DNA of 64,000 nucleotides from Escherichia coli. Lineage in GTDB: Bacteria; Pseudomonadota; Gammaproteobacteria; Enterobacterales; Enterobacteriaceae. The stretch lies in the NCBI RefSeq assembly GCF_041886205.1, contig NZ_CP169029.1; one strand, given 5' to 3'. The notes beneath the pieces are model-generated. The model was not told the origin of the DNA and ran no database searches. It saw only the letters and a list, made by a program, of their open reading frames with translations. The position numbers and the translations under genes were made by a program. Of the stretch, positions 35,467-54,935 are shown piece by piece; the first letter of the stretch is position 1; the number at the start of each line of letters is the position of its first letter.

Positions 35467-36807
35467 GTGACTACATTAACGCTTGTTTTAACAGCAGTAG
35501 GGTCTGTTTTACTGCTGCTGTTTTTAGTCATGAAGGCGCGTATGCACGCTTTCCTGGCTTTAATGGTGGTGTCTATGGGGGCTGGCCTTTTTTCCGGTAT
35601 GCCGCTCGATAAAATCGCAGCGACGATGGAAAAAGGGATGGGAGGCACCCTCGGCTTCCTGGCGGTGGTTGTCGCCCTGGGAGCTATGTTTGGCAAGATC
35701 TTACATGAAACCGGCGCAGTCGATCAGATTGCCGTCAAAATGCTCAAATCCTTCGGCCACAGCCGCGCGCATTATGCCATTGGCCTTGCGGGGCTGGTTT
35801 GTGCGCTACCGCTGTTCTTTGAAGTGGCGATTGTTCTGCTGATTAGCGTTGCTTTCTCAATGGCGCGCCACACCGGTACGAACCTGGTGAAGCTGGTAAT
35901 CCCATTATTCGCAGGCGTGGCGGCAGCGGCGGCGTTCCTGGTGCCAGGGCCAGCGCCAATGCTGCTGGCATCGCAGATGAACGCCGATTTTGGCTGGATG
36001 ATCCTGATTGGCCTGTGTGCGGCAATTCCGGGAATGATTATTGCCGGGCCGCTGTGGGGTAACTTCATCAGCCGTTACGTTGAGCTGCATATTCCTGACG
36101 ACATCAGCGAACCGCATCTCGGCGAAGGCAAAATGCCATCTTTCGGATTCAGCCTGTCGCTGATCCTGCTGCCGCTGGTGCTGGTAGGGCTGAAAACCAT
36201 TGCCGCGCGTTTTGTGCCGGAAGGATCAACTGCTTACGAATGGTTTGAGTTTATCGGTCATCCGTTTACCGCGATTCTGGTTGCTTGTCTGGTGGCGATT
36301 TACGGTCTGGCAATGCGTCAGGGCATGCCAAAAGACAAAGTGATGGAGATTTGCGGTCACGCGCTGCAACCGGCGGGGATCATTCTGCTGGTGATTGGTG
36401 CGGGCGGCGTGTTCAAACAGGTGCTGGTTGACTCTGGCGTAGGTCCGGCACTGGGCGAAGCGTTAACCGGCATGGGCCTGCCGATTGCTATCACCTGCTT
36501 CGTGCTGGCCGCTGCAGTGCGCATCATTCAGGGGTCTGCCACCGTAGCCTGTTTAACGGCGGTGGGACTGGTGATGCCAGTCATTGAACAACTGAACTAC
36601 TCTGGTGCGCAAATGGCGGCACTGTCGATTTGTATCGCTGGTGGTTCGATTGTTGTCAGCCACGTTAACGACGCTGGTTTCTGGTTGTTCGGTAAATTTA
36701 CCGGCGCGACCGAAGCCGAAACGCTGAAAACCTGGACCATGATGGAAACCATCCTCGGCACTGTCGGTGCCATCGTTGGGATGATTGCGTTCCAGCTGTT
36801 GAGTTAA
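35467..36807 (+). CDS. gntU: Low-affinity gluconate transporter GntU (GntP family)
   Basis: 446 aa polytopic ORF matching remembered GntU. Confidence 0.93.
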   Translation: MTTLTLVLTAVGSVLLLLFLVMKARMHAFLALMVVSMGAGLFSGMPLDKIAATMEKGMGGTLGFLAVVVALGAMFGKILHETGAVDQIAVKMLKSFGHSRAHYAIGLAGLVCALPLFFEVAIVLLISVAFSMARHTGTNLVKLVIPLFAGVAAAAAFLVPGPAPMLLASQMNADFGWMILIGLCAAIPGMIIAGPLWGNFISRYVELHIPDDISEPHLGEGKMPSFGFSLSLILLPLVLVGLKTIAARFVPEGSTAYEWFEFIGHPFTAILVACLVAIYGLAMRQGMPKDKVMEICGHALQPAGIILLVIGAGGVFKQVLVDSGVGPALGEALTGMGLPIAITCFVLAAAVRIIQGSATVACLTAVGLVMPVIEQLNYSGAQMAALSICIAGGSIVVSHVNDAGFWLFGKFTGATEAETLKTWTMMETILGTVGAIVGMIAFQLLS

Positions 36808-36820
36808 TTACTGCGACAAA

Positions 36821-36852
36821 TTACTGCGAGCTTGCTCGCAGTAATTCATTTC
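36821..36852 (+). terminator. gntU rho-independent terminator
   Basis: Stem ttactgcgag/ctcgcagtaa with loop cttg followed by a T-rich run. Confidence 0.7.
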
Positions 36853-36946
36853 TCTTATCTCCTCTCTTCATCTTTTTGATCCCTCTCGCAAATTTACCTG
36901 CTAATAATCCGTTCTAATCACTGCCTAAAGATCGCAGGAGATAAAG

Positions 36947-39043
36947 ATGGAAAAGCACGGAGCTGAATTGCTTTTACAGCGGATGTTAGGAAATACCACC
37001 GCTACTTTCAGGAAAGGGCAATGGGAAGCCATAGACGCGGTGGTGAACCAACGGCGAAAACTGCTGGTTGTCCAACGCACTGGCAGGGGGAAAAGTGCCG
37101 TGTACTTCATCGCCAGTAAAATCTTCCGCGATCGCGGTGCTGGCCCGACAATTATCATCTCTCCTTTGCTTGCCCTGATGCGTAACCAGGTTGCCGCCGC
37201 TGAACGGTTAGGTATTACGGCTGAAACGTTGAATTCTACAAACAGGGAAGAATGGCAGCGTATTAGCGATAAGTTGCTGCAAGGTGAGGTCGATTGCTTG
37301 CTGGTTTCCCCGGAACGTTTGGCAAACCAGGACTTTATCGAAACGGTTTTATATCCTATAGCCGATCGTATTGGCTTGCTTGTGGTCGACGAGGCGCACT
37401 GCATCTCTGATTGGGGCCACGATTTTCGCCCGGATTACCGACGTATATTAGATATTTTGCGCCAACTGCCTGCGAATATCCCAGTTCTGGGTACAACCGC
37501 GACAGCGAATAACCGTGTCGTTGAGGATATCCGTCAGCAATTGGGTGACATTGTGATTCAGCGTGGAACGCTGGCTCGCGAAAGTTTGGCGCTTGATGCC
37601 TTAGTCTTAGGTGAACAGTCATCCCGTCTGGCATGGTTAGCAACGGTTATCCCTCAGTTTTCCAAATCGGGAATTGTTTATACCCTGACTACTCGCGATG
37701 CCGAACTTGTCGCCGAGTGGTTAAGGACAAATGGTATCAGTGCATTTGCTTACTACAGCGGCGTGACTTGTGAAGGCGCGGAAGATTCTAATACTGCCAG
37801 GGAATATCTGGAGCAGGCGCTGCTGGCAAATAAAATCAAAGTGCTGGTCGCGACGACGGCATTAGGTATGGGGTTTGATAAACCTGATTTAGGTTTCGTC
37901 ATTCATTATCAAATGCCGGGGTCTATTGTCGGTTACTACCAACAGGTAGGGCGTGCCGGGCGTGCTATAGATTCCGCTGTTGGCATATTGCTTTGTGGTG
38001 GTGAAGACCGCGCTATTCATAAATTCTTCCGTGAAAGCGCCTTTCCTGCGGAGGCGCAAATTCATGAAATACTCAACGTACTTAGCGAGAATGACGGTCT
38101 TACCCTACGAGGCATTGAACAACGGACGAATCTCCGTTATGGGCAAATAGAAAAAGCACTGAAATTATTGGTAGCTGAAAATCCATCGCCTGTGGTGTAT
38201 ACCGAGAAATTATGGCGCAGAACTATCGTCAGTTTCTCTCCTGACCATGAACGAATTAACCATTTGATGAATCAGAGAAAAAATGAGCTGGCAGATGTTG
38301 AAAGCTATATCACGACCAAGGAGTGCAAAATGCAATTTCTGCGCCGCGCACTCGATGAGCCAAGTGCCGAACGTTGTGGTAAATGTAGCAGTTGTCTTCA
38401 GCATCCGTTGCTGTCGCCCGATATTGATAGCGGCTTACTCCATGCGGCAAATTTATTTATTAAACACGCTGACCTGCCATTAAATCTCAATAAACAGGTA
38501 GCATCTGGGGCTTTTACGCAATACGGATTTAAAGGGAACTTGCCTGCGGGTTTACAAGGATCTACGGGGCGAGTCCTTTCTCGTTGGGGAGATTCCGGGT
38601 GGGGAAAGCAGGTAGCACAGGAGAAAAAAACGGGGCGATTCAGTGATGAGCTGGTGGAGGCATGTGCGGAAATGGTTCGCCAACGCTGGAATCCGCATCC
38701 TGAACCAACCTGGGTATGCTGCGTTCCTTCATTAAGGCACCTCGACCTGGTTCCTGATTTTGCCCGGCGACTGGCGGCGAAACTTGGCTTACCTTTTATT
38801 GATGCCATTGAAAAAGTCGTGGACAATCCACCGCAGAATATGCAGCAAAACCGTTTTCACCAGTGTCAAAATCTCGACGGGGCGTTTGTGATTACCCCTC
38901 CTTTGATGCCAGGTCCGGCGTTGCTGGTTGACGATATCGTGGATTCTGCATGGACGCTGACAGTTCTGACAGCACTGTTACGCCAGGCAGGTTGCCCGAC
39001 GGTTTATCCTCTTGCCCTTGCTTCTACCTCGGTAAAAAATTGA
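36947..39043 (+). CDS. RecQ-family DEAH-box helicase with zinc-binding motif and C-terminal phosphoribosyltransferase-like (ComF-like) domain; accessory gene absent from the K-12 gntU-yhgN junction
   Basis: 698 aa ORF with strong SD (aggag, 36936..36940). Motifs: Walker A TGRGKSAVY, RecQ-type motif II VVDEAHCISDWGHDFRPDY, TATA motif, helicase-C QQVGRAGR, Cys cluster C..CGKCSSC, C-terminal PRTase-like LLVDDIVDSAWTL. Confidence 0.88.
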   Translation: MEKHGAELLLQRMLGNTTATFRKGQWEAIDAVVNQRRKLLVVQRTGRGKSAVYFIASKIFRDRGAGPTIIISPLLALMRNQVAAAERLGITAETLNSTNREEWQRISDKLLQGEVDCLLVSPERLANQDFIETVLYPIADRIGLLVVDEAHCISDWGHDFRPDYRRILDILRQLPANIPVLGTTATANNRVVEDIRQQLGDIVIQRGTLARESLALDALVLGEQSSRLAWLATVIPQFSKSGIVYTLTTRDAELVAEWLRTNGISAFAYYSGVTCEGAEDSNTAREYLEQALLANKIKVLVATTALGMGFDKPDLGFVIHYQMPGSIVGYYQQVGRAGRAIDSAVGILLCGGEDRAIHKFFRESAFPAEAQIHEILNVLSENDGLTLRGIEQRTNLRYGQIEKALKLLVAENPSPVVYTEKLWRRTIVSFSPDHERINHLMNQRKNELADVESYITTKECKMQFLRRALDEPSAERCGKCSSCLQHPLLSPDIDSGLLHAANLFIKHADLPLNLNKQVASGAFTQYGFKGNLPAGLQGSTGRVLSRWGDSGWGKQVAQEKKTGRFSDELVEACAEMVRQRWNPHPEPTWVCCVPSLRHLDLVPDFARRLAAKLGLPFIDAIEKVVDNPPQNMQQNRFHQCQNLDGAFVITPPLMPGPALLVDDIVDSAWTLTVLTALLRQAGCPTVYPLALASTSVKN

Positions 39044-40245
39044 TGAATCTTTCAGCCAATGCACAAGCGACTCTCCTGCTAACCAGCGATTTTTCTCGCG
39101 CGGCGGCGAGTGAGCATAAACCTCTTAGTAATAGTGAATGGGGGAAGTTTGCATTATGGCTGAAGCACCAACGTATCAGTCCCGCCGAGCTTCTGGTGCC
39201 GCAACCGCAAGAGAAACTTACAGGCTGGAGCGATCCGCGTATTTCTCAGGAGCGTATTCTTGGCTTGCTGGCGCGCGGTCATAGTCTGGCGTTGGCGGTA
39301 GATAAGTGGCAACGCGCCGGTTTATGGATCATAACCCGAGGAGATGCTGATTATCCCGTTCGCTTGAAAAACCGATTGCGAACGGATGCACCTCCCGTTT
39401 TATTTGGCTGCGGGAATAAAGCATTACTGCAAGCGGAAGGTATGGCGATTGTTGGCTCGCGAGATGCTCCGACTGACGATTTGCGCTATACCCAACAACT
39501 GGCCGCGAAACTGGCCCAACAGGGGATTTGCGTTATCTCTGGTGGTGCGCGAGGTATTGATGAATGTGCAATGGCGTCGGCACTGGAGGCCGGGGGAACT
39601 GCCGTTGGCGTATTAGCTGATAGCTTGTTAAAAACGAGTACGTTAGTGAAATGGCGTGAAGGGCTTATAGCAGGCAACCTGGTGTTGATTTCGCCGTTTT
39701 ACCCAGAGGTGCGTTTCACCGTCGGCAATGCGATGGCGCGAAATAAATATATTTATTGCCTTGCTGAAAGCGCAATGGTTGTACGTGCGGGAATGACCGG
39801 TGGAACGATAACCGGGGCGATAGAGGCATTAAAACATCAGTGGCTGCCTGTGCAGGTTAAACCAAATCAGGATATGCAATCAGCCAATTCACGATTAGTA
39901 GAAAATGGGGCGTCATGGAGTGCTGAACAGGCTGAGAATGTGCCGATCAGACTGTCAGACGTTCCTGGGCTGATGTATGACAGAGCACTCCGTAACGCTC
40001 AACCAGAACTGTTTTCGCTGTATGAAGATGACGCAAATTACGCAGTAATGCCCGCGCATACGCCTGTCGATTTTTATCAACTCTTTGTGGCGGAACTGGC
40101 GATCTTTGCAAAGGAATCGATAAGTATTGAAAGGCTGTCGTCTTGTACTGGTTTAACCATCGAACAAATTAGTGTGTGGCTGAACCGCGCAGAAGAAGAG
40201 GGAAGGGTTATCCGATTGGGCGAAGGTCATTATCAGTTCAGGTAA
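39043..40245 (+). CDS. DprA/Smf-like protein (Rossmann/SLOG-fold core with N-terminal extension and C-terminal winged-helix-like tail); accessory
   Basis: ORF track frame 38950..40245; start taken at MNLSANAQ (39043), whose ATG overlaps the upstream TGA stop (TGATG). Core motifs IVGSRDAP, VISGGARGIDECAMASALEAGG and LISPFYPEVRFTVGNAMARN resemble DprA. Confidence 0.85.
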   Translation: MNLSANAQATLLLTSDFSRAAASEHKPLSNSEWGKFALWLKHQRISPAELLVPQPQEKLTGWSDPRISQERILGLLARGHSLALAVDKWQRAGLWIITRGDADYPVRLKNRLRTDAPPVLFGCGNKALLQAEGMAIVGSRDAPTDDLRYTQQLAAKLAQQGICVISGGARGIDECAMASALEAGGTAVGVLADSLLKTSTLVKWREGLIAGNLVLISPFYPEVRFTVGNAMARNKYIYCLAESAMVVRAGMTGGTITGAIEALKHQWLPVQVKPNQDMQSANSRLVENGASWSAEQAENVPIRLSDVPGLMYDRALRNAQPELFSLYEDDANYAVMPAHTPVDFYQLFVAELAIFAKESISIERLSSCTGLTIEQISVWLNRAEEEGRVIRLGEGHYQFR

Positions 40246-40248
40246 TAA

Positions 40249-40284
40249 AACAGGTGCCGCGTCTGGTTGTGTGCAGCACCTGTT
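40249..40284. terminator. Hairpin between the DprA-like gene and convergent yhgN
   Basis: Perfect 9 bp inverted repeat aacaggtgc/gcacctgtt around an 18 nt loop, immediately after the stop at 40245. Confidence 0.5.
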
Positions 40285-40290
40285 TGAACC

Positions 40291-51936: not shown

Positions 51937-53454
51937 ATGGAAAGAATAATGCAAAACAGAAAATGGATTTTGACCTCGCTGGTAATGACTTTTTTCGGCA
52001 TCCCCATACTGACGCAATTTTTGGCAGCGGTTGTTGCTATGCTGGGGGGCGGGCTTGCCGCTATTCTTGAGGTTTGCAATTTACTCTTTACGCCAGCAAT
52101 TTATCTTCTACTCAACGTCTTTATGCTGACTCTGGGGGCGATAATAATATTTTTCTCTGGTCGCGTGTGGGCGGGCGATAGTGCACCAGAAAAAAAAGAA
52201 ATAGCCGTCTGGCGACAATGTCTTTTTTTAGTACCTGCTTTATTCACCCTGGTTGGCTGGATAATCACGCTACATCTGGCAGATTATCAATTTCGCCAGA
52301 TGGGAGACGGTTGGTTGGCAAACCTTATGCTTCCCTGGTTGGGCATTTTTTTAGTCTCATTAGTGGGTGGTGAGTACTGGTGGATAGTCATTATACCCGT
52401 TGGCGCGCATATCAGTTTTTCGCTGGGGTACGGTTGGCCGACCAGACATCTTTTAACGGGCACGTCCGGGTTACGTTGCCGTAATTCCCTCTTGTTTATC
52501 CTTCTCATGCTTGGTTTTGTCGCCGGTTACCAGGCTTATTTATATAAACAGCTTAATCCCGGCGTCGGTGTCCGCGAAAATATTGATACCTGGGCCTGGC
52601 GACCCGATAAACTCAATAATCAACTGACACCATTACGTGGTAAACCGCAAATTCAGTTTACGCAAAACTGGCCGCGACTCGATGGTGCTACGGCGGCGTA
52701 CCCAATTTATGCCTCTGCCTTTTATGCGTTGAGCGTTATACCGGAAGATTTTCACACCAGGGAATATCTGGAGAACTCTCATACCCCCGATGCATATAAC
52801 AGGATTGTTAAAGGTGATGCCGATATTATTTTTGTGGCGCAACCCTCCGGTAGGCAGAAAAAACGCGCTGAGGAATCGGGCGTCACTTTGCTATACACGC
52901 CATTTGCCCGTGAAGCATTCGTTTTCATCGTCAATGCGGATAATCCGGTTAATTCCCTGACTGAACAACAGGTGCGTGACATCTTCAGTGGTGCAATTAC
53001 CAACTGGCGTACTGTTGGCGGTAACGATCAGGAGATCCAGACCTGGCAACGCCCGGAAGACTCTGGCAGCCAGACGGTGATGCAATCACAGGTCATGAAA
53101 AATGTCCGCATGATCTCGCCGCAGGAAACAGAAGTGGCAAGTATGATGGAGGGAATGATTAAAGTCGTTGCCGAATACCATAATACAAAGAACTCAATTG
53201 GCTACACCTTCCGCTATTACGCCACGCAAATGAACGCTGACAAGAATATCAAATTGTTAGCGATTAACGGTATTGCACCCACTGCGGAAAATATCCGTAA
53301 CGGCAAATATCCGTATATCGTCGAGGCATTTATGGTAACGCGGGAAAATATGACCTCAGAAACACAAAAATTGGTGGAGTGGTTTTTAACGCCGCAGGGG
53401 CAGAGCCTGGTGGAAGATGTAGGTTATGTGCCGATGTATAAGACGCTACCTTAA
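51937..53454 (+). CDS. Polytopic membrane domain fused to a C-terminal PstS-like (phosphate-binding-protein fold) periplasmic domain; K-12 has only the yzgL pseudogene here
   Basis: 505 aa ORF; N-terminal ~200 aa hydrophobic, C-terminal region with PBP-like motifs (DGATAAYPIY..., SGSQTV). A TATAAT-like element lies ~25 bp upstream. Start may be M1 (51937) or M5 (51949). Confidence 0.75.
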   Translation: MERIMQNRKWILTSLVMTFFGIPILTQFLAAVVAMLGGGLAAILEVCNLLFTPAIYLLLNVFMLTLGAIIIFFSGRVWAGDSAPEKKEIAVWRQCLFLVPALFTLVGWIITLHLADYQFRQMGDGWLANLMLPWLGIFLVSLVGGEYWWIVIIPVGAHISFSLGYGWPTRHLLTGTSGLRCRNSLLFILLMLGFVAGYQAYLYKQLNPGVGVRENIDTWAWRPDKLNNQLTPLRGKPQIQFTQNWPRLDGATAAYPIYASAFYALSVIPEDFHTREYLENSHTPDAYNRIVKGDADIIFVAQPSGRQKKRAEESGVTLLYTPFAREAFVFIVNADNPVNSLTEQQVRDIFSGAITNWRTVGGNDQEIQTWQRPEDSGSQTVMQSQVMKNVRMISPQETEVASMMEGMIKVVAEYHNTKNSIGYTFRYYATQMNADKNIKLLAINGIAPTAENIRNGKYPYIVEAFMVTRENMTSETQKLVEWFLTPQGQSLVEDVGYVPMYKTLP

Positions 53455-53556
53455 GCAGGATAATCATATGGATACCGGTATTATTCACCTGAACGCGGCG
53501 AATGTTCGTTTTGTTTATCAACCATTTACACGCGACCAGCGGAAGAGGGGGTAATT

Positions 53557-54333
53557 ATGCAACCCAGCCCCGCCATGCAGGCATTAATTGAGCAGATTTA
53601 TTATATTTTTCGTCGTTATCCTGTGCCATCGAGATTTCATGTTTGTTGTCCTTACTGTTTTAGCGAAGAACAACAACAAGCCTTAAGAGGGGTTTCACTG
53701 CGTGCCATACCTTTTCCTTTATTACATGCCTGGGGAACAAGTATTGGCCCTAACCCACAAAATGATGATGAGATTCGCTATTTATTACCCAGATTGTTTG
53801 AATTAATTGCCCAAAGGCAATTTCCAGGCATTTATGAAGGCTGCTGTTTACAGAGAATAGCAGAGGCAGATAACCAGAACTGGCGAAGGGATGAACTACA
53901 AATAATTAGCGATTTCGCCTATTTATATATGCAGGATTGGGTGTCGGCTAAGGAAGTCGTGGAACTGGAAATAATATTAGAAATGTTTTATCGCGGTGGT
54001 ATAAAGATTGAACCCTTACTTGACTCTATTATGTCCATTTCCGGTTACTGGCCGACGGCGTCTATGGCATGTTTGCTCTGGCGTAACAGTAAAGAATACG
54101 TCGAAAATAGCGATTTTGAGCAGAGTGATGATAATAAAACTATTACCACCCAAATCAATACTTGGGCTAGAAACAATCATCCTTTGCTGAAAGAAAGAGC
54201 GCGGCAAGCGATTGAGAACCCACTAAAACAGCCCGAACCAATGACAGAATATCAAGTCTGGGAAGACGACTGGATGATTGATGAGTGTTTATGCGCGATG
54301 TATGACGCATCACCTGAACAATCAGGACAATAA
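53557..54333 (+). CDS. Hypothetical cytoplasmic Cys-containing protein, AT-rich gene
   Basis: 258 aa ORF with strong SD (agaggggg) and no TM segments; codon usage visibly AT-rich compared with flanking glg/glp genes; no family recognised by eye. Confidence 0.65.
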   Translation: MQPSPAMQALIEQIYYIFRRYPVPSRFHVCCPYCFSEEQQQALRGVSLRAIPFPLLHAWGTSIGPNPQNDDEIRYLLPRLFELIAQRQFPGIYEGCCLQRIAEADNQNWRRDELQIISDFAYLYMQDWVSAKEVVELEIILEMFYRGGIKIEPLLDSIMSISGYWPTASMACLLWRNSKEYVENSDFEQSDDNKTITTQINTWARNNHPLLKERARQAIENPLKQPEPMTEYQVWEDDWMIDECLCAMYDASPEQSGQ

Positions 54334-54335
54334 AG

Positions 54336-54935
54336 ATGAAGAAAATCAGACTTTATATTTATCCGCTATATCTCGGCTTTGTTATTGTGCCGTTGTTGGT
54401 ATGGCCGACGGTGGTTGCGCTGGTTGTTGTTGGTATCACACTGAGTTTTCTGATGGAGATGCTGTTCTCAAATTCGTTCATGCACAGGCGTATTTCCCTT
54501 CTGGAATTACAACTTGGGTTATTGGCTGAATATACGCTTTTGTTCTGCGCCATATGTTACGTTGGTTGGCAATTTGCTTCCAGAACTCAATCTGAATTGA
54601 AAAGCAGACTGCATTGTTGGTTGGTATTTGCACCAGTTTATTTCTGGTTGTTCCTGTGGGATATCATTTTCTATGTCGCGCCAGCGAAAATTACATTGCT
54701 GGAAAATATGCGCAGTTTCTTTCTGACCGTTGTCTGGCTCCCACTGAATTTTTCGCCATTTTGGCCTCAGCCGTGGACTGACTTTATCGGTCCGATAAGT
54801 GCACAGCTTGGGTTTGCGTTAGGATATTACTGCCATTGGCGCAGCAAAAATAGAAGCCAGAGGCTGAAGTGGGGGGAGTGGGGAACGTGCCTGAGTTTTG
54901 TTACGTTGGGTATGATGGCGTGGGCTTTACGGTAA
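54336..54935 (+). CDS. Hypothetical small polytopic membrane protein
   Basis: 199 aa ORF starting 3 bp after the previous stop; 4-5 predicted hydrophobic helices; AT-rich. Confidence 0.6.
   Translation: MKKIRLYIYPLYLGFVIVPLLVWPTVVALVVVGITLSFLMEMLFSNSFMHRRISLLELQLGLLAEYTLLFCAICYVGWQFASRTQSELKSRLHCWLVFAPVYFWLFLWDIIFYVAPAKITLLENMRSFFLTVVWLPLNFSPFWPQPWTDFIGPISAQLGFALGYYCHWRSKNRSQRLKWGEWGTCLSFVTLGMMAWALR

Follow-up and report, generated by a model that had tools for sequence, protein, structure and literature searches.

Organization of the gntU-yhgN site

The window analyzed in this study is a 64,000-nucleotide stretch of an Escherichia coli genome (NCBI RefSeq assembly GCF_041886205.1, contig NZ_CP169029.1). 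In an alignment with K-12 JM83, sequence identity ended at the gntU stop codon (36807) and restarted at the yhgN stop codon (40291), such that the stop codons of both flanking genes form the segment boundaries. The junction contained 3,483 bp (36808-40290) in place of the 56-bp K-12 spacer, in agreement with the original prediction of an insertion of about 3.4 kb relative to K-12. The following features were identified, with the source of each assignment in parentheses:

36808..40290, no strand: accessory segment, the complete rqlHI/PsyrTA cassette (JM83 breakpoints)
36819..36846, + strand: hairpin with a perfect 13-bp stem and a T-rich run (terminator scan, inverted repeat I3, RNA fold)
36847..36946, + strand: rqlH upstream region, presumed native promoter (sequence reading)
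36947..39043, + strand: rqlH/psyrT, 698-aa RecQ-like SF2 helicase with a C-terminal PRTase domain, toxin (PADLOC, TIGR00614)
37013..37966, + strand: helicase core, residues 23-340 (Pfam DEAD and Helicase_C)
37085..37087, + strand: P-loop codon 47, AGG (Arg) (allele and homologue comparison)
38324..38395, + strand: Zn-binding module, C460/C477/C480/C483 (weak Pfam RecQ_Zn_bind at residues 442-484)
38471..39040, + strand: PRTase (ComF-like) tail, residues ~509-698 (AF2 model, Foldseek, weak Pfam/NCBIfam)
39043..40245, + strand: rqlI/psyrA, 400-aa DprA-like (SLOG/Rossmann) antitoxin (PADLOC PsyrA)
39307..39918, + strand: DprA/SLOG Rossmann domain of RqlI, residues 89-292 (Pfam DNA_processg_A, SLOG cluster4)
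40248..40285, no strand: hairpin between the convergent rqlI and yhgN (inverted repeat I6, RNA fold)

As had been predicted, the cassette consists of two coupled, overlapping genes of 698 and 400 codons: the TGA stop of rqlH (39041-39043) overlaps the ATG start of rqlI (39043-39045) within the sequence TGATG at 39041-39045. RefSeq annotates a 431-aa form of RqlI starting from 38950, while the published RqlI (PMC4670107) and the PsyrA of Millman 2022 are both 400 aa, the length obtained from the ATG at 39043. A Shine-Dalgarno sequence AGGAG was found upstream of rqlH at 36936-36940. Since a sigma-70 consensus scan returned no promoter match in the upstream region (36847..36946), the promoter is placed there presumptively. 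The hairpin following gntU (-16.6 kcal/mol, z -4.4) is likely the gntU terminator, brought in with the cassette, and the hairpin between rqlI and yhgN, which folds on both strands (-18.9 kcal/mol on the + strand and -21.0 kcal/mol on the - strand, z -3.2 and -4.7, respectively), is likely a bidirectional terminator.

The site is variable among E. coli, as anticipated. Of the 5,426 complete genomes analyzed, 1,650 (~30%) carried the cassette, always in the chromosome and at this same site, and the remaining ~70% had an empty gntU-yhgN site. The cassette was intact in 1,641 of the 1,650 carriers, with an identity of 96-100%. Annotation of the flanking genes and a repeat scan identified no integrase, transposase, or other mobility gene at the cassette, which bears out the predicted lack of flanking mobility genes, and no repeats of note at its boundaries. 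The repeats that were found, direct ones of 12-17 nt and inverted pairs of up to 24 nt, were consistent with chance and lay away from the boundaries; hence, a mobile-element insertion signature was rejected. The window additionally differed from strain 6EVA by an indel upstream of the neighboring TPR gene.

Domain composition of the two proteins

The domain content proposed for the pair, namely a helicase, a PRTase-like tail, and a DprA domain, was recovered by Pfam searches together with a structure model of the tail and a fold search. In RqlH, Pfam identified the DEAD and Helicase_C domains with weak matches to RecQ_Zn_bind and Pribosyltran, while neither an RQC nor an HRDC domain was found in the same search. 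The protein passed the cut-off of the RecQ family model TIGR00614 (254 bits, cut-off 220), and the closest solved structures of its helicase core were RecQ catalytic cores, such as 1oyw. The helicase motifs, including the Walker A sequence TGRGKS (K49), the DEAH box (D148), and the motif VI sequence QQVGRAGR, were conserved in the seven homologues compared. The same was true of the cysteines C460, C477, C480, and C483 in homologues ranging from E. coli to a haloarchaeon.

The C-terminal tail of RqlH contains the PRPP loop LLVDDIVDSAWT, a motif almost invariant among the homologues, in which D663 is encoded at nt 38933-38935. The AF2 model of the tail had a pLDDT of 88.6. Searched with Foldseek, this predicted structure matched best to type I PRTases (APRT, OPRT, and HGPRT) and to the ComF protein of H. 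pylori (7p0h, TMq 0.52). In addition to the weak Pfam match, a weak NCBIfam match to GntX was observed.

RqlI contains the DNA_processg_A domain (E 1e-50) and the SLOG cluster4 domain of Pfam, and its sequence matches in the PDB were DprA and ShosA (9vzo and 8zva). No solved structure was found for the PsyrT tail, PsyrA, or a complex of the two, where the matches were limited to RecQ cores, DprA, and ShosA.

Compared to the ST131 orthologues at the same gntU-yhgN site, RqlI was 97.5% and RqlH 97.7% identical. The 16 positions that distinguish the RqlH alleles include W47R in the Walker A motif. Codon 47 was TGG (Trp) in every other allele and every distant homologue of the comparison, and a 41-mer containing the AGG codon occurred in six of the 5,426 genomes. 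This rare substitution is a minor new detail of the window allele.

Identification as the RqlHI/PsyrTA system

The gene pair between gntU and yhgN is the published rqlH-rqlI operon, which is also known as the PsyrTA toxin-antitoxin and anti-phage system (Russell and Mulvey, 2015, PMC4670107; Sberro, 2013, a toxin-antitoxin screen; Millman, 2022). RqlH matched the PADLOC model PsyrT (PDLC03928) with 1057 bits, aligning residues 3-697 to profile positions 5-687 of 689, and its helicase and tail each matched separately with 729 and 308 bits. RqlI matched the model PsyrA (PDLC03927) with 661 bits over residues 1-400 (profile positions 1-397 of 398), and its N-terminal and C-terminal extensions likewise matched on their own, with 127 and 89 bits. 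Both scores were far above those of the next families in PADLOC. The other features of PsyrTA were also observed: the genes are adjacent on one strand, the helicase gene lies upstream, and the second start overlaps the first stop. The catalytic residues K49, D148, and D663 (in the DIVD sequence) are present, while the P-loop residue 47 is Arg rather than Trp.

The pair shares its species, two-gene operon, protein lengths, and residue numbering (K49, D148, DIVD663, and the 400 residues of RqlI) with RqlH and RqlI of the extraintestinal pathogenic (ExPEC) strain F11. The cassette is therefore an ordinary example of an already described system and differs from F11 RqlHI only by allele. PsyrTA is modelled in both PADLOC and DefenseFinder, such that standard defence-annotation tools recognize the cassette. 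The original prediction had guessed at a defence or DNA-processing module, which was correct, while its view of the pair as uncharacterized and belonging to no named system was overturned by a homology search, the test it had itself proposed for refuting it.

Several related families were rejected as assignments. For canonical RecQ, TIGR01389 and PRK11057 scored 297 and 227 bits against cut-offs of 640 and 1015, with only residues 9-365 aligned. For canonical DprA, TIGR00732 scored 102 bits (cut-off 191) and PRK10736 79 bits (cut-off 495). Membership in ShosTA was rejected as the tail had no ShosT match at E<=1 and RqlI scored 93 bits with ShosA versus 661 with PsyrA. The GntX/ComFC equivalog NF008616 scored 15.5 bits, far from its cut-off of 304, leaving a likeness only at the level of the fold. 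The DpdF model NF041063 scored 150 bits, where the cut-off is 550, and the DpdF models of PADLOC reached at most 310 bits versus 1057 for PsyrT. The secondary DpdF matches in PADLOC and NCBIfam would be the basis for reading the pair as a component of Dpd 7-deazaguanine DNA modification, or else as an unnamed defence system, but with such low scores, gntU and yhgN rather than dpd genes adjoining the cassette, and names for the system dating from 2013-2015, this can practically be dismissed.

Published biology and proposed mechanism

The operon structure of rqlH and rqlI (EcF11_3933) was demonstrated in F11 by RT-PCR, and RqlH alone was toxic in MG1655 and rescued by RqlI (PMC4670107). The PRTase domain of the F11 protein was genotoxic, and RqlI bound and neutralized it: the toxicity was abolished by D663A and by deletion of residues 509-690, while co-immunoprecipitation of RqlI and RqlH needed the PRTase domain and was lost with RqlH 1-509 (PMC4670107). 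Toxicity of helicase-dead RqlH mutants was not fully rescued by RqlI (PMC4670107). A double deletion of rqlHI caused no repair or fitness defect, whereas the single deletion of rqlI was harmful (PMC4670107), and a deletion of psyrA was not obtainable in Millman 2022, where PsyrTA/RqlHI was named as a defence system. Besides the 2015 study and survey papers, no paper specific to the PsyrTA mechanism was found in the literature collection searched.

Two further systems offer a comparison. In ShosTA, as in the pair described here, a PRPP-binding PRTase toxin causes DNA damage and filamentation and is paired with a DprA-like antitoxin (PMC11961720, PMC12961424). Unlike RqlH, ShosT has no helicase, and ShosA neutralizes through ssDNA and RecA without binding ShosT, whereas the PRTase domain mediates the co-precipitation of RqlI with RqlH. 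The RqlH of M. smegmatis (Ordonez et al., 2012, PMC3378886) has the same helicase and PRTase architecture; it stands alone without RqlI and was studied as a DNA helicase rather than a toxin. The K49 and D148 mutations of the E. coli protein were modelled on that work (PMC4670107).

The cassette is very probably a known two-gene toxin-antitoxin module that belongs to the listed anti-phage defence systems and operates as follows. RqlI would be made from the rqlH transcript by coupled translation and would bind the PRTase region, rendering RqlH harmless, with the helicase ATPase acting as a further restraint. When RqlI is missing or insufficient, a PRTase activity dependent on the PRPP pocket would damage DNA metabolism, leading to SOS induction, filamentation, a mutator effect, and growth arrest. 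All of the steps up to this point were demonstrated by experiment in the ExPEC orthologue, which is 97.7% identical (PMC4670107). In a last step, phage or other foreign DNA may upset the balance of RqlH and RqlI, such that the infected cell would arrest in the manner of abortive infection. This step is suggested by a protective Bacillus homologue, the relatedness to ShosTA, and the defence-island neighbors of distant homologues.

Distant homologues and the question of phage defence

Both genes and their order were conserved at 37-61% identity on three plasmids, one each from E. coli (IncF), Acinetobacter, and Nostoc; the co-occurrence of the two genes has been published, as has the helicase-first order, which is described as universal. 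The homologues on the E. coli IncF plasmid sit inside a type I restriction-modification operon (hsdM-hsdS-pair-hsdR), and those on the Acinetobacter plasmid lie between the BREX gene pglX and a DUF262 gene, which fits a role in defence. In contrast, many Gram-positives and archaea encode the helicase-PRTase protein without a DprA-like gene, the Arthrobacter and haloarchaeal homologues being examples, and toxicity is therefore context dependent. A full-length RqlI homologue was not found in phage genomes, where the only match was DprA-like with a coverage of 45% (Gordonia phage Vasanti).

Protection from phages was verified for the PsyrTA of Bacillus sp. FJAT-29814 (Millman, 2022). Both published tests of E. 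coli alleles were negative. The plaquing of a native-promoter clone, proposed as an experiment for this locus, was already performed in Millman 2022 with this same cassette from E. coli STEC 1299 (construct SG127), for which the entry reads 'observed defense: x' with 12 coliphages. The first ~60 bases shown of this 3,485-bp insert match the window from 36807, and its native expression depended on the intergenic DNA upstream of rqlH. When the PsyrTA of NILS69 was expressed in K-12 MG1655, protection was not detectable, and its deletion in the native host had no reported effect.

These negative results also fit a different explanation, in which the E. coli pair is only a chromosomal addiction-type remnant: the pair persists since loss of the antitoxin is harmful, it confers no defence benefit, and it is slowly decaying. 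The fixed chromosomal site without mobility genes and the contrast between the costless double deletion and the harmful rqlI deletion point in the same direction. So do the signs of decay. The rqlH gene of O157:H7 is a pseudogene with a frameshift while rqlI is intact, a toxin-lost, antitoxin-kept state that is the usual decay order of toxin-antitoxin pairs and that also supports the toxin-antitoxin identity of the cassette, and in some strains rqlH is interrupted by ISEcp1-blaCTX-M-15. Nevertheless, decay is difficult to reconcile with the near-complete intactness and high identity of the cassette among its carriers (1,641 of 1,650, 96-100%), with catalytic motifs retained from E. coli to archaea in the seven homologues, and with distant relatives in restriction-modification and BREX loci. 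Moreover, the Bacillus homologue is protective and the phage panels so far have been small. An addiction remnant is a possible but clearly less probable explanation than the toxin-antitoxin defence module.

The cooperative DNA-maintenance role proposed by Russell and Mulvey (PMC4670107) appears improbable. In this 2015 model, RqlH and RqlI form a DNA repair or maintenance complex, where a nucleotide modification introduced into DNA by the PRTase domain is resolved by RqlI and the helicase, and toxicity is a by-product of imbalance. The physical interaction of the proteins and the incomplete rescue of helicase-dead mutants are consistent with such a complex, as are the active 3'-5' RecQ-family helicase reported for M. 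smegmatis RqlH (PMC3378886) and the action of the related antitoxin ShosA through ssDNA binding and RecA. The model is opposed by the lack of a repair or fitness defect in the double mutant, the absence of the cassette from ~70% of E. coli, scores that fall well short of the genuine RecQ and DprA cut-offs, and the defence-island neighbors of the homologues.

It is very unlikely that the pair serves natural transformation as an accessory module for ssDNA uptake or processing driven by a RecQ-type motor. The resemblance noted in the original prediction to the ComFA, ComFC, and DprA trio holds as a domain analogy, since the pair combines an SF2 helicase, a PRTase with a ComF-like fold (matched by 7p0h and weakly by GntX), and a DprA domain, as the trio does, and it was already drawn in the 2015 Discussion (PMC4670107). 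It does not extend to equivalence: the GntX/ComFC and DprA scores (15.5 vs 304 and 102 vs 191 bits) are far below cut-off, and the motor is RecQ-type while that of natural transformation is ComFA-type. Additionally, no transformation was detected in the ExPEC isolates of Russell and Mulvey, who state that ExPEC strains carry a separate smf/dprA elsewhere (PMC4670107), and toxicity with neutralization fits a toxin-antitoxin system rather than an uptake machine.

Significance of the cassette

The literature already covers the locus, the logic of its domains, its toxin-antitoxin behavior, and even the cloning experiment that was proposed. The remaining value of the finding is modest; the cassette is an accessory module common in E. 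coli (~30% of complete genomes). There is a small chance that the helicase-tethered PRTase performs an undescribed chemistry on DNA or DNA-bound nucleotides and that the E. coli system acts on something other than the lytic phages tried to date, for example plasmids, conjugative DNA, or temperate phages. If so, the W47R allele of the window could be a natural variant that is attenuated or re-tuned.

Identification of the rqlH-rqlI cassette

The accessory segment between gntU and yhgN (36808-40290) is the already known RqlHI/PsyrTA cassette, and an earlier study cloned and assayed precisely this cassette. It encodes a RecQ-like helicase with a PRTase tail (the toxin) and a DprA-like protein (the antitoxin), with the following features.

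36947..39043, same strand as ORF2: rqlH/psyrT (ORF1), 698 aa, open reading frame
39043..40245, same strand as ORF1: rqlI/psyrA (ORF2), 400 aa, from an in-frame ATG at 39043
36819-36846: likely hairpin terminator, cassette-borne
40248-40285: likely hairpin terminator, cassette-borne

The TGA stop codon of ORF1 overlaps the ATG of ORF2 at 39043 in the motif TGATG. The cassette is preceded by gntU and followed by the convergent yhgN, and then by asd and the glg operon. When aligned with the K-12 strain JM83, identity stopped at 36807, where the stop codon of gntU ends, and picked up again at the yhgN stop codon (40291); hence, 3,483 bp in the window correspond to a 56-bp spacer in JM83. The RefSeq annotation of the locus in the identical strain E. 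coli 6EVA agreed, and the two ORFs, their overlap, and the gntU-yhgN location described in the original prediction were confirmed. No integrase or transposase was found in the segment, and a repeat search identified no repeats at its boundaries, while its internal repeats were short and consistent with chance. The GC content of the cassette was similar to that of its flanks.

In RefSeq, rqlI starts at the ATG at 38950, giving a protein of 431 aa and a 94-nt overlap with rqlH. This start is 93 nt too far upstream, and the 400-aa form from 39043 is backed by the published RqlI (400 aa in strain F11; PMC4670107), the PsyrA of Millman et al., and the PsyrA profile.

Against PADLOC-DB, ORF1 and ORF2 matched PsyrT (1057 bits) and PsyrA (661 bits) from end to end, followed by the families DpdF (310 bits) and ShosA (93 bits), and separately queried halves of each protein still matched the PsyrT or PsyrA profile. 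Pfam domains in ORF1 included DEAD and Helicase_C, with weak matches to the RecQ zinc-binding and Pribosyltran domains, and those in ORF2 included DNA_processg_A (E 1e-50) and SLOG cluster4. Among NCBIfam models, ORF1 was above the cut-off for the broad RecQ family (TIGR00614) and well under those for a genuine RecQ, and ORF2 was well under the cut-off for the DprA equivalog. A model of the ORF1 tail (residues 490-698), for which six diverse homologues were aligned, was confident (pLDDT 88.6). The closest solved structures were the type I phosphoribosyltransferases APRT, OPRT, and HGPRT and the ComF of H. pylori, the latter having the top query TM-score (0.52); the PDB included no structure of the RqlH tail or of PsyrA. 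All three domain assignments of the original prediction were thus right: a motor of the RecQ type, a PRTase tail resembling ComFC, and a homologue of DprA.

Two PADLOC models labeled DpdF, PDLC02869 and PDLC02866 (74 and 255 positions), strongly matched the RqlH tail (38321-39040) with 177 and 70 bits, respectively. They appear to be built from PsyrT-like tails, and PsyrT fragments could be labeled DpdF as a result.

Elsewhere in the window, three same-strand genes occupy the glgP-glpD interval (51937-54935) and are presumably absent from this interval in K-12. One encodes 505 aa, with a PstS-like C-terminal half and about 280 N-terminal aa without assignment, and the other two encode hypothetical products 258 and 199 aa in length. 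No PADLOC match was obtained for any of the three, and no NCBIfam match save the PstS domain. A 254-aa tetratricopeptide-repeat protein with weak TPR-family matches and no PADLOC match is encoded between livF and ugpB (22600-23364). Upstream of the cassette, positions were offset by about 128 bp from the otherwise identical 6EVA, and an indel therefore lies between about 23.3 and 36.4 kb.

Comparison with characterized orthologues

The names rqlH and rqlI were given to these genes in the ExPEC strain F11 (Russell and Mulvey, PLoS Pathog 2015; PMC4670107). The residues mutated in that study, K49 and D148 of the helicase and DIVD663 of the PRPP pocket, are identical in the window protein, and an ST131 orthologue, also at the gntU-yhgN site, shared identities of 97.7% (RqlH) and 97.5% (RqlI). 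In F11, the two genes are co-transcribed. Expressed without RqlI in MG1655, RqlH induced the SOS response and filamentation, acted as a mutator, and inhibited growth; this toxicity required the PRTase domain and D663, and was rescued by RqlI. The proteins co-immunoprecipitated only when the PRTase domain was present, and this domain is held back in part by helicase activity (PMC4670107). Additionally, Millman et al. were unable to transform a psyrA deletion.

The pairing had been taken for an unnamed defence or DNA-processing module. While the observation was accurate and the functional guess reasonable, the system is named, included in standard tools, and dissected by experiment since 2013-2015; Millman et al., who count PsyrTA/RqlHI among defence systems, cite both Sberro 2013 and Russell and Mulvey 2015. 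The proposed parallel with the ComF helicase, ComF PRTase, and DprA trio also appeared in the 2015 Discussion (PMC4670107).

The suggested native-promoter cloning and phage challenge had likewise been published. Millman et al. challenged native-promoter clones in MG1655 with 12 coliphages, and their Table S2 lists construct SG127 as 'PsyrTA, observed defense x, Escherichia coli STEC 1299'. Its 3,485-bp insert starts with ATTACTGCGACAAATTACTGCGAGCTTGCTCGCAGTAATTC..., corresponding to the window from 36807 onward; the encoded PsyrT begins MEKHAAELLLQRMLGNTTATFREGQ... and its 400-aa PsyrA ends ...GEGHYQFR. The defence-verified construct, SG128 ('v'), is from Bacillus sp. FJAT-29814. In a later study of the natural isolate NILS69, PsyrTA expressed in K-12 gave no detectable protection, and no effect of its deletion was reported. 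Toxin-antitoxin behaviour is thus demonstrated for this E. coli orthologue, whereas the anti-phage assays of SG127 and of the NILS69 system in K-12 were negative.

Distribution and genomic context

Among 5,426 complete E. coli genomes, 1,650 carried the cassette and 1,641 of these had a full-length copy, always at a single chromosomal site and with 96-100% identity, and all but two of the non-carriers, which had no match, showed an empty gntU-yhgN junction. These counts fit published surveys, where PsyrTA is among the common E. coli systems and enriched in some phylogroups; its expression is reported to be conserved between strains of shared genomic context.

Disrupted copies were also observed. 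In O157:H7 ATCC 43890 (locus L012), rqlH is pseudogenized: loss of 1 bp shifts the frame, a stop codon lies in frame, and 29 bp are duplicated in tandem (window equivalents ~37462 and ~38733). As rqlI is intact, this is a toxin-first decay typical of TA pairs. In the clinical isolate NRZ94505 (L013:1-5586), rqlH is interrupted by an inserted ISEcp1-blaCTX-M-15 unit with a Tn3 fragment behind it. What is left is the PRTase tail, which RefSeq labels a fragment of a 'ComF family protein', together with rqlI, which is intact.

A tblastn search identified 12 full-length RqlH homologues on plasmids, five of which had their neighbourhoods inspected. On the E. coli IncFIA/FIC conjugative plasmid NZ_OX030731.1 (L004:694-10127), a pair with 61% and 53% identity lies inside a type I restriction operon in the order hsdM, hsdS, rqlH-rqlI, hsdR; as it sits between hsdS and hsdR, this TA/defence pair is embedded in another defence operon. 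The pair is flanked by the BREX gene pglX and a DUF262 gene on an Acinetobacter plasmid (L006), and adjoins parAB on a Nostoc plasmid. Haloarchaeal and Arthrobacter replicons carried the helicase-PRTase gene without a DprA-like partner, in agreement with the published observation that Gram-positives usually have no RqlI. Seven of seven sequences retained the lysine of Walker A, the DEAH motif, motif VI, the four cysteines that bind zinc, and the PRPP loop VDD(I/A/T/L)V(D/N)S. By association rather than proof, the neighbours of these homologues favour a function in conflicts with foreign DNA.

Discussion

The window proteins have all catalytic motifs intact, a predicted PRTase fold in the tail, and a DprA/SLOG fold in RqlI. 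As shown in the orthologue, their expression would be coupled, RqlI binding would depend on the PRTase region, and a lack of RqlI would lead to PRPP-pocket-dependent genotoxicity. Infection or foreign DNA may upset this balance and free the toxin, causing cell arrest. To this end, ssDNA might titrate the DprA-like protein, host shut-off might act together with instability of the antitoxin, or the helicase might stall. Precedents are found in the related ShosTA system (PMC11961720, PMC12961424), where ShosT must bind PRPP and interferes with purine metabolism, ShosA acts via ssDNA and RecA, and shut-off by T7 Gp0.7 is a trigger. In contrast to RqlI and RqlH, ShosA and ShosT do not bind each other, and at the sequence level the RqlH tail does not match ShosT.

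Alternatively, what E. coli carries may be for the most part a remnant of the addiction type. Such a remnant would fit the negative results of the defence tests, a double deletion that is neutral, and decay that begins with the toxin gene. Instead, the two proteins may form a cooperative DNA-maintenance complex, as modeled in 2015. A transformation-like role was not supported, as no transformation was detectable in the ExPEC isolates examined (PMC4670107), nor was a Dpd role, given the lower DpdF score (310 vs 1057 bits for PsyrT) and the neighbours gntU and yhgN.

Beyond the literature consulted, the locus adds small points only, namely the RefSeq rqlI start and a W47R allele. In codon 47 of rqlH (37085-37087), TGG is replaced by AGG, such that the P-loop (Walker-A) reads TGRGKS vs TGWGKS in all other E. 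coli alleles compared (including ST131, O103:H2, and O157:H7) and in the plasmid, cyanobacterial, Acinetobacter, actinobacterial, and haloarchaeal homologues compared. A 41-mer with AGG occurred in six of the 5,426 complete genomes. Because RqlH was found in 2015 to be toxic when mutated to a helicase-dead form (PMC4670107), this rare allele might change the gating of the toxin.
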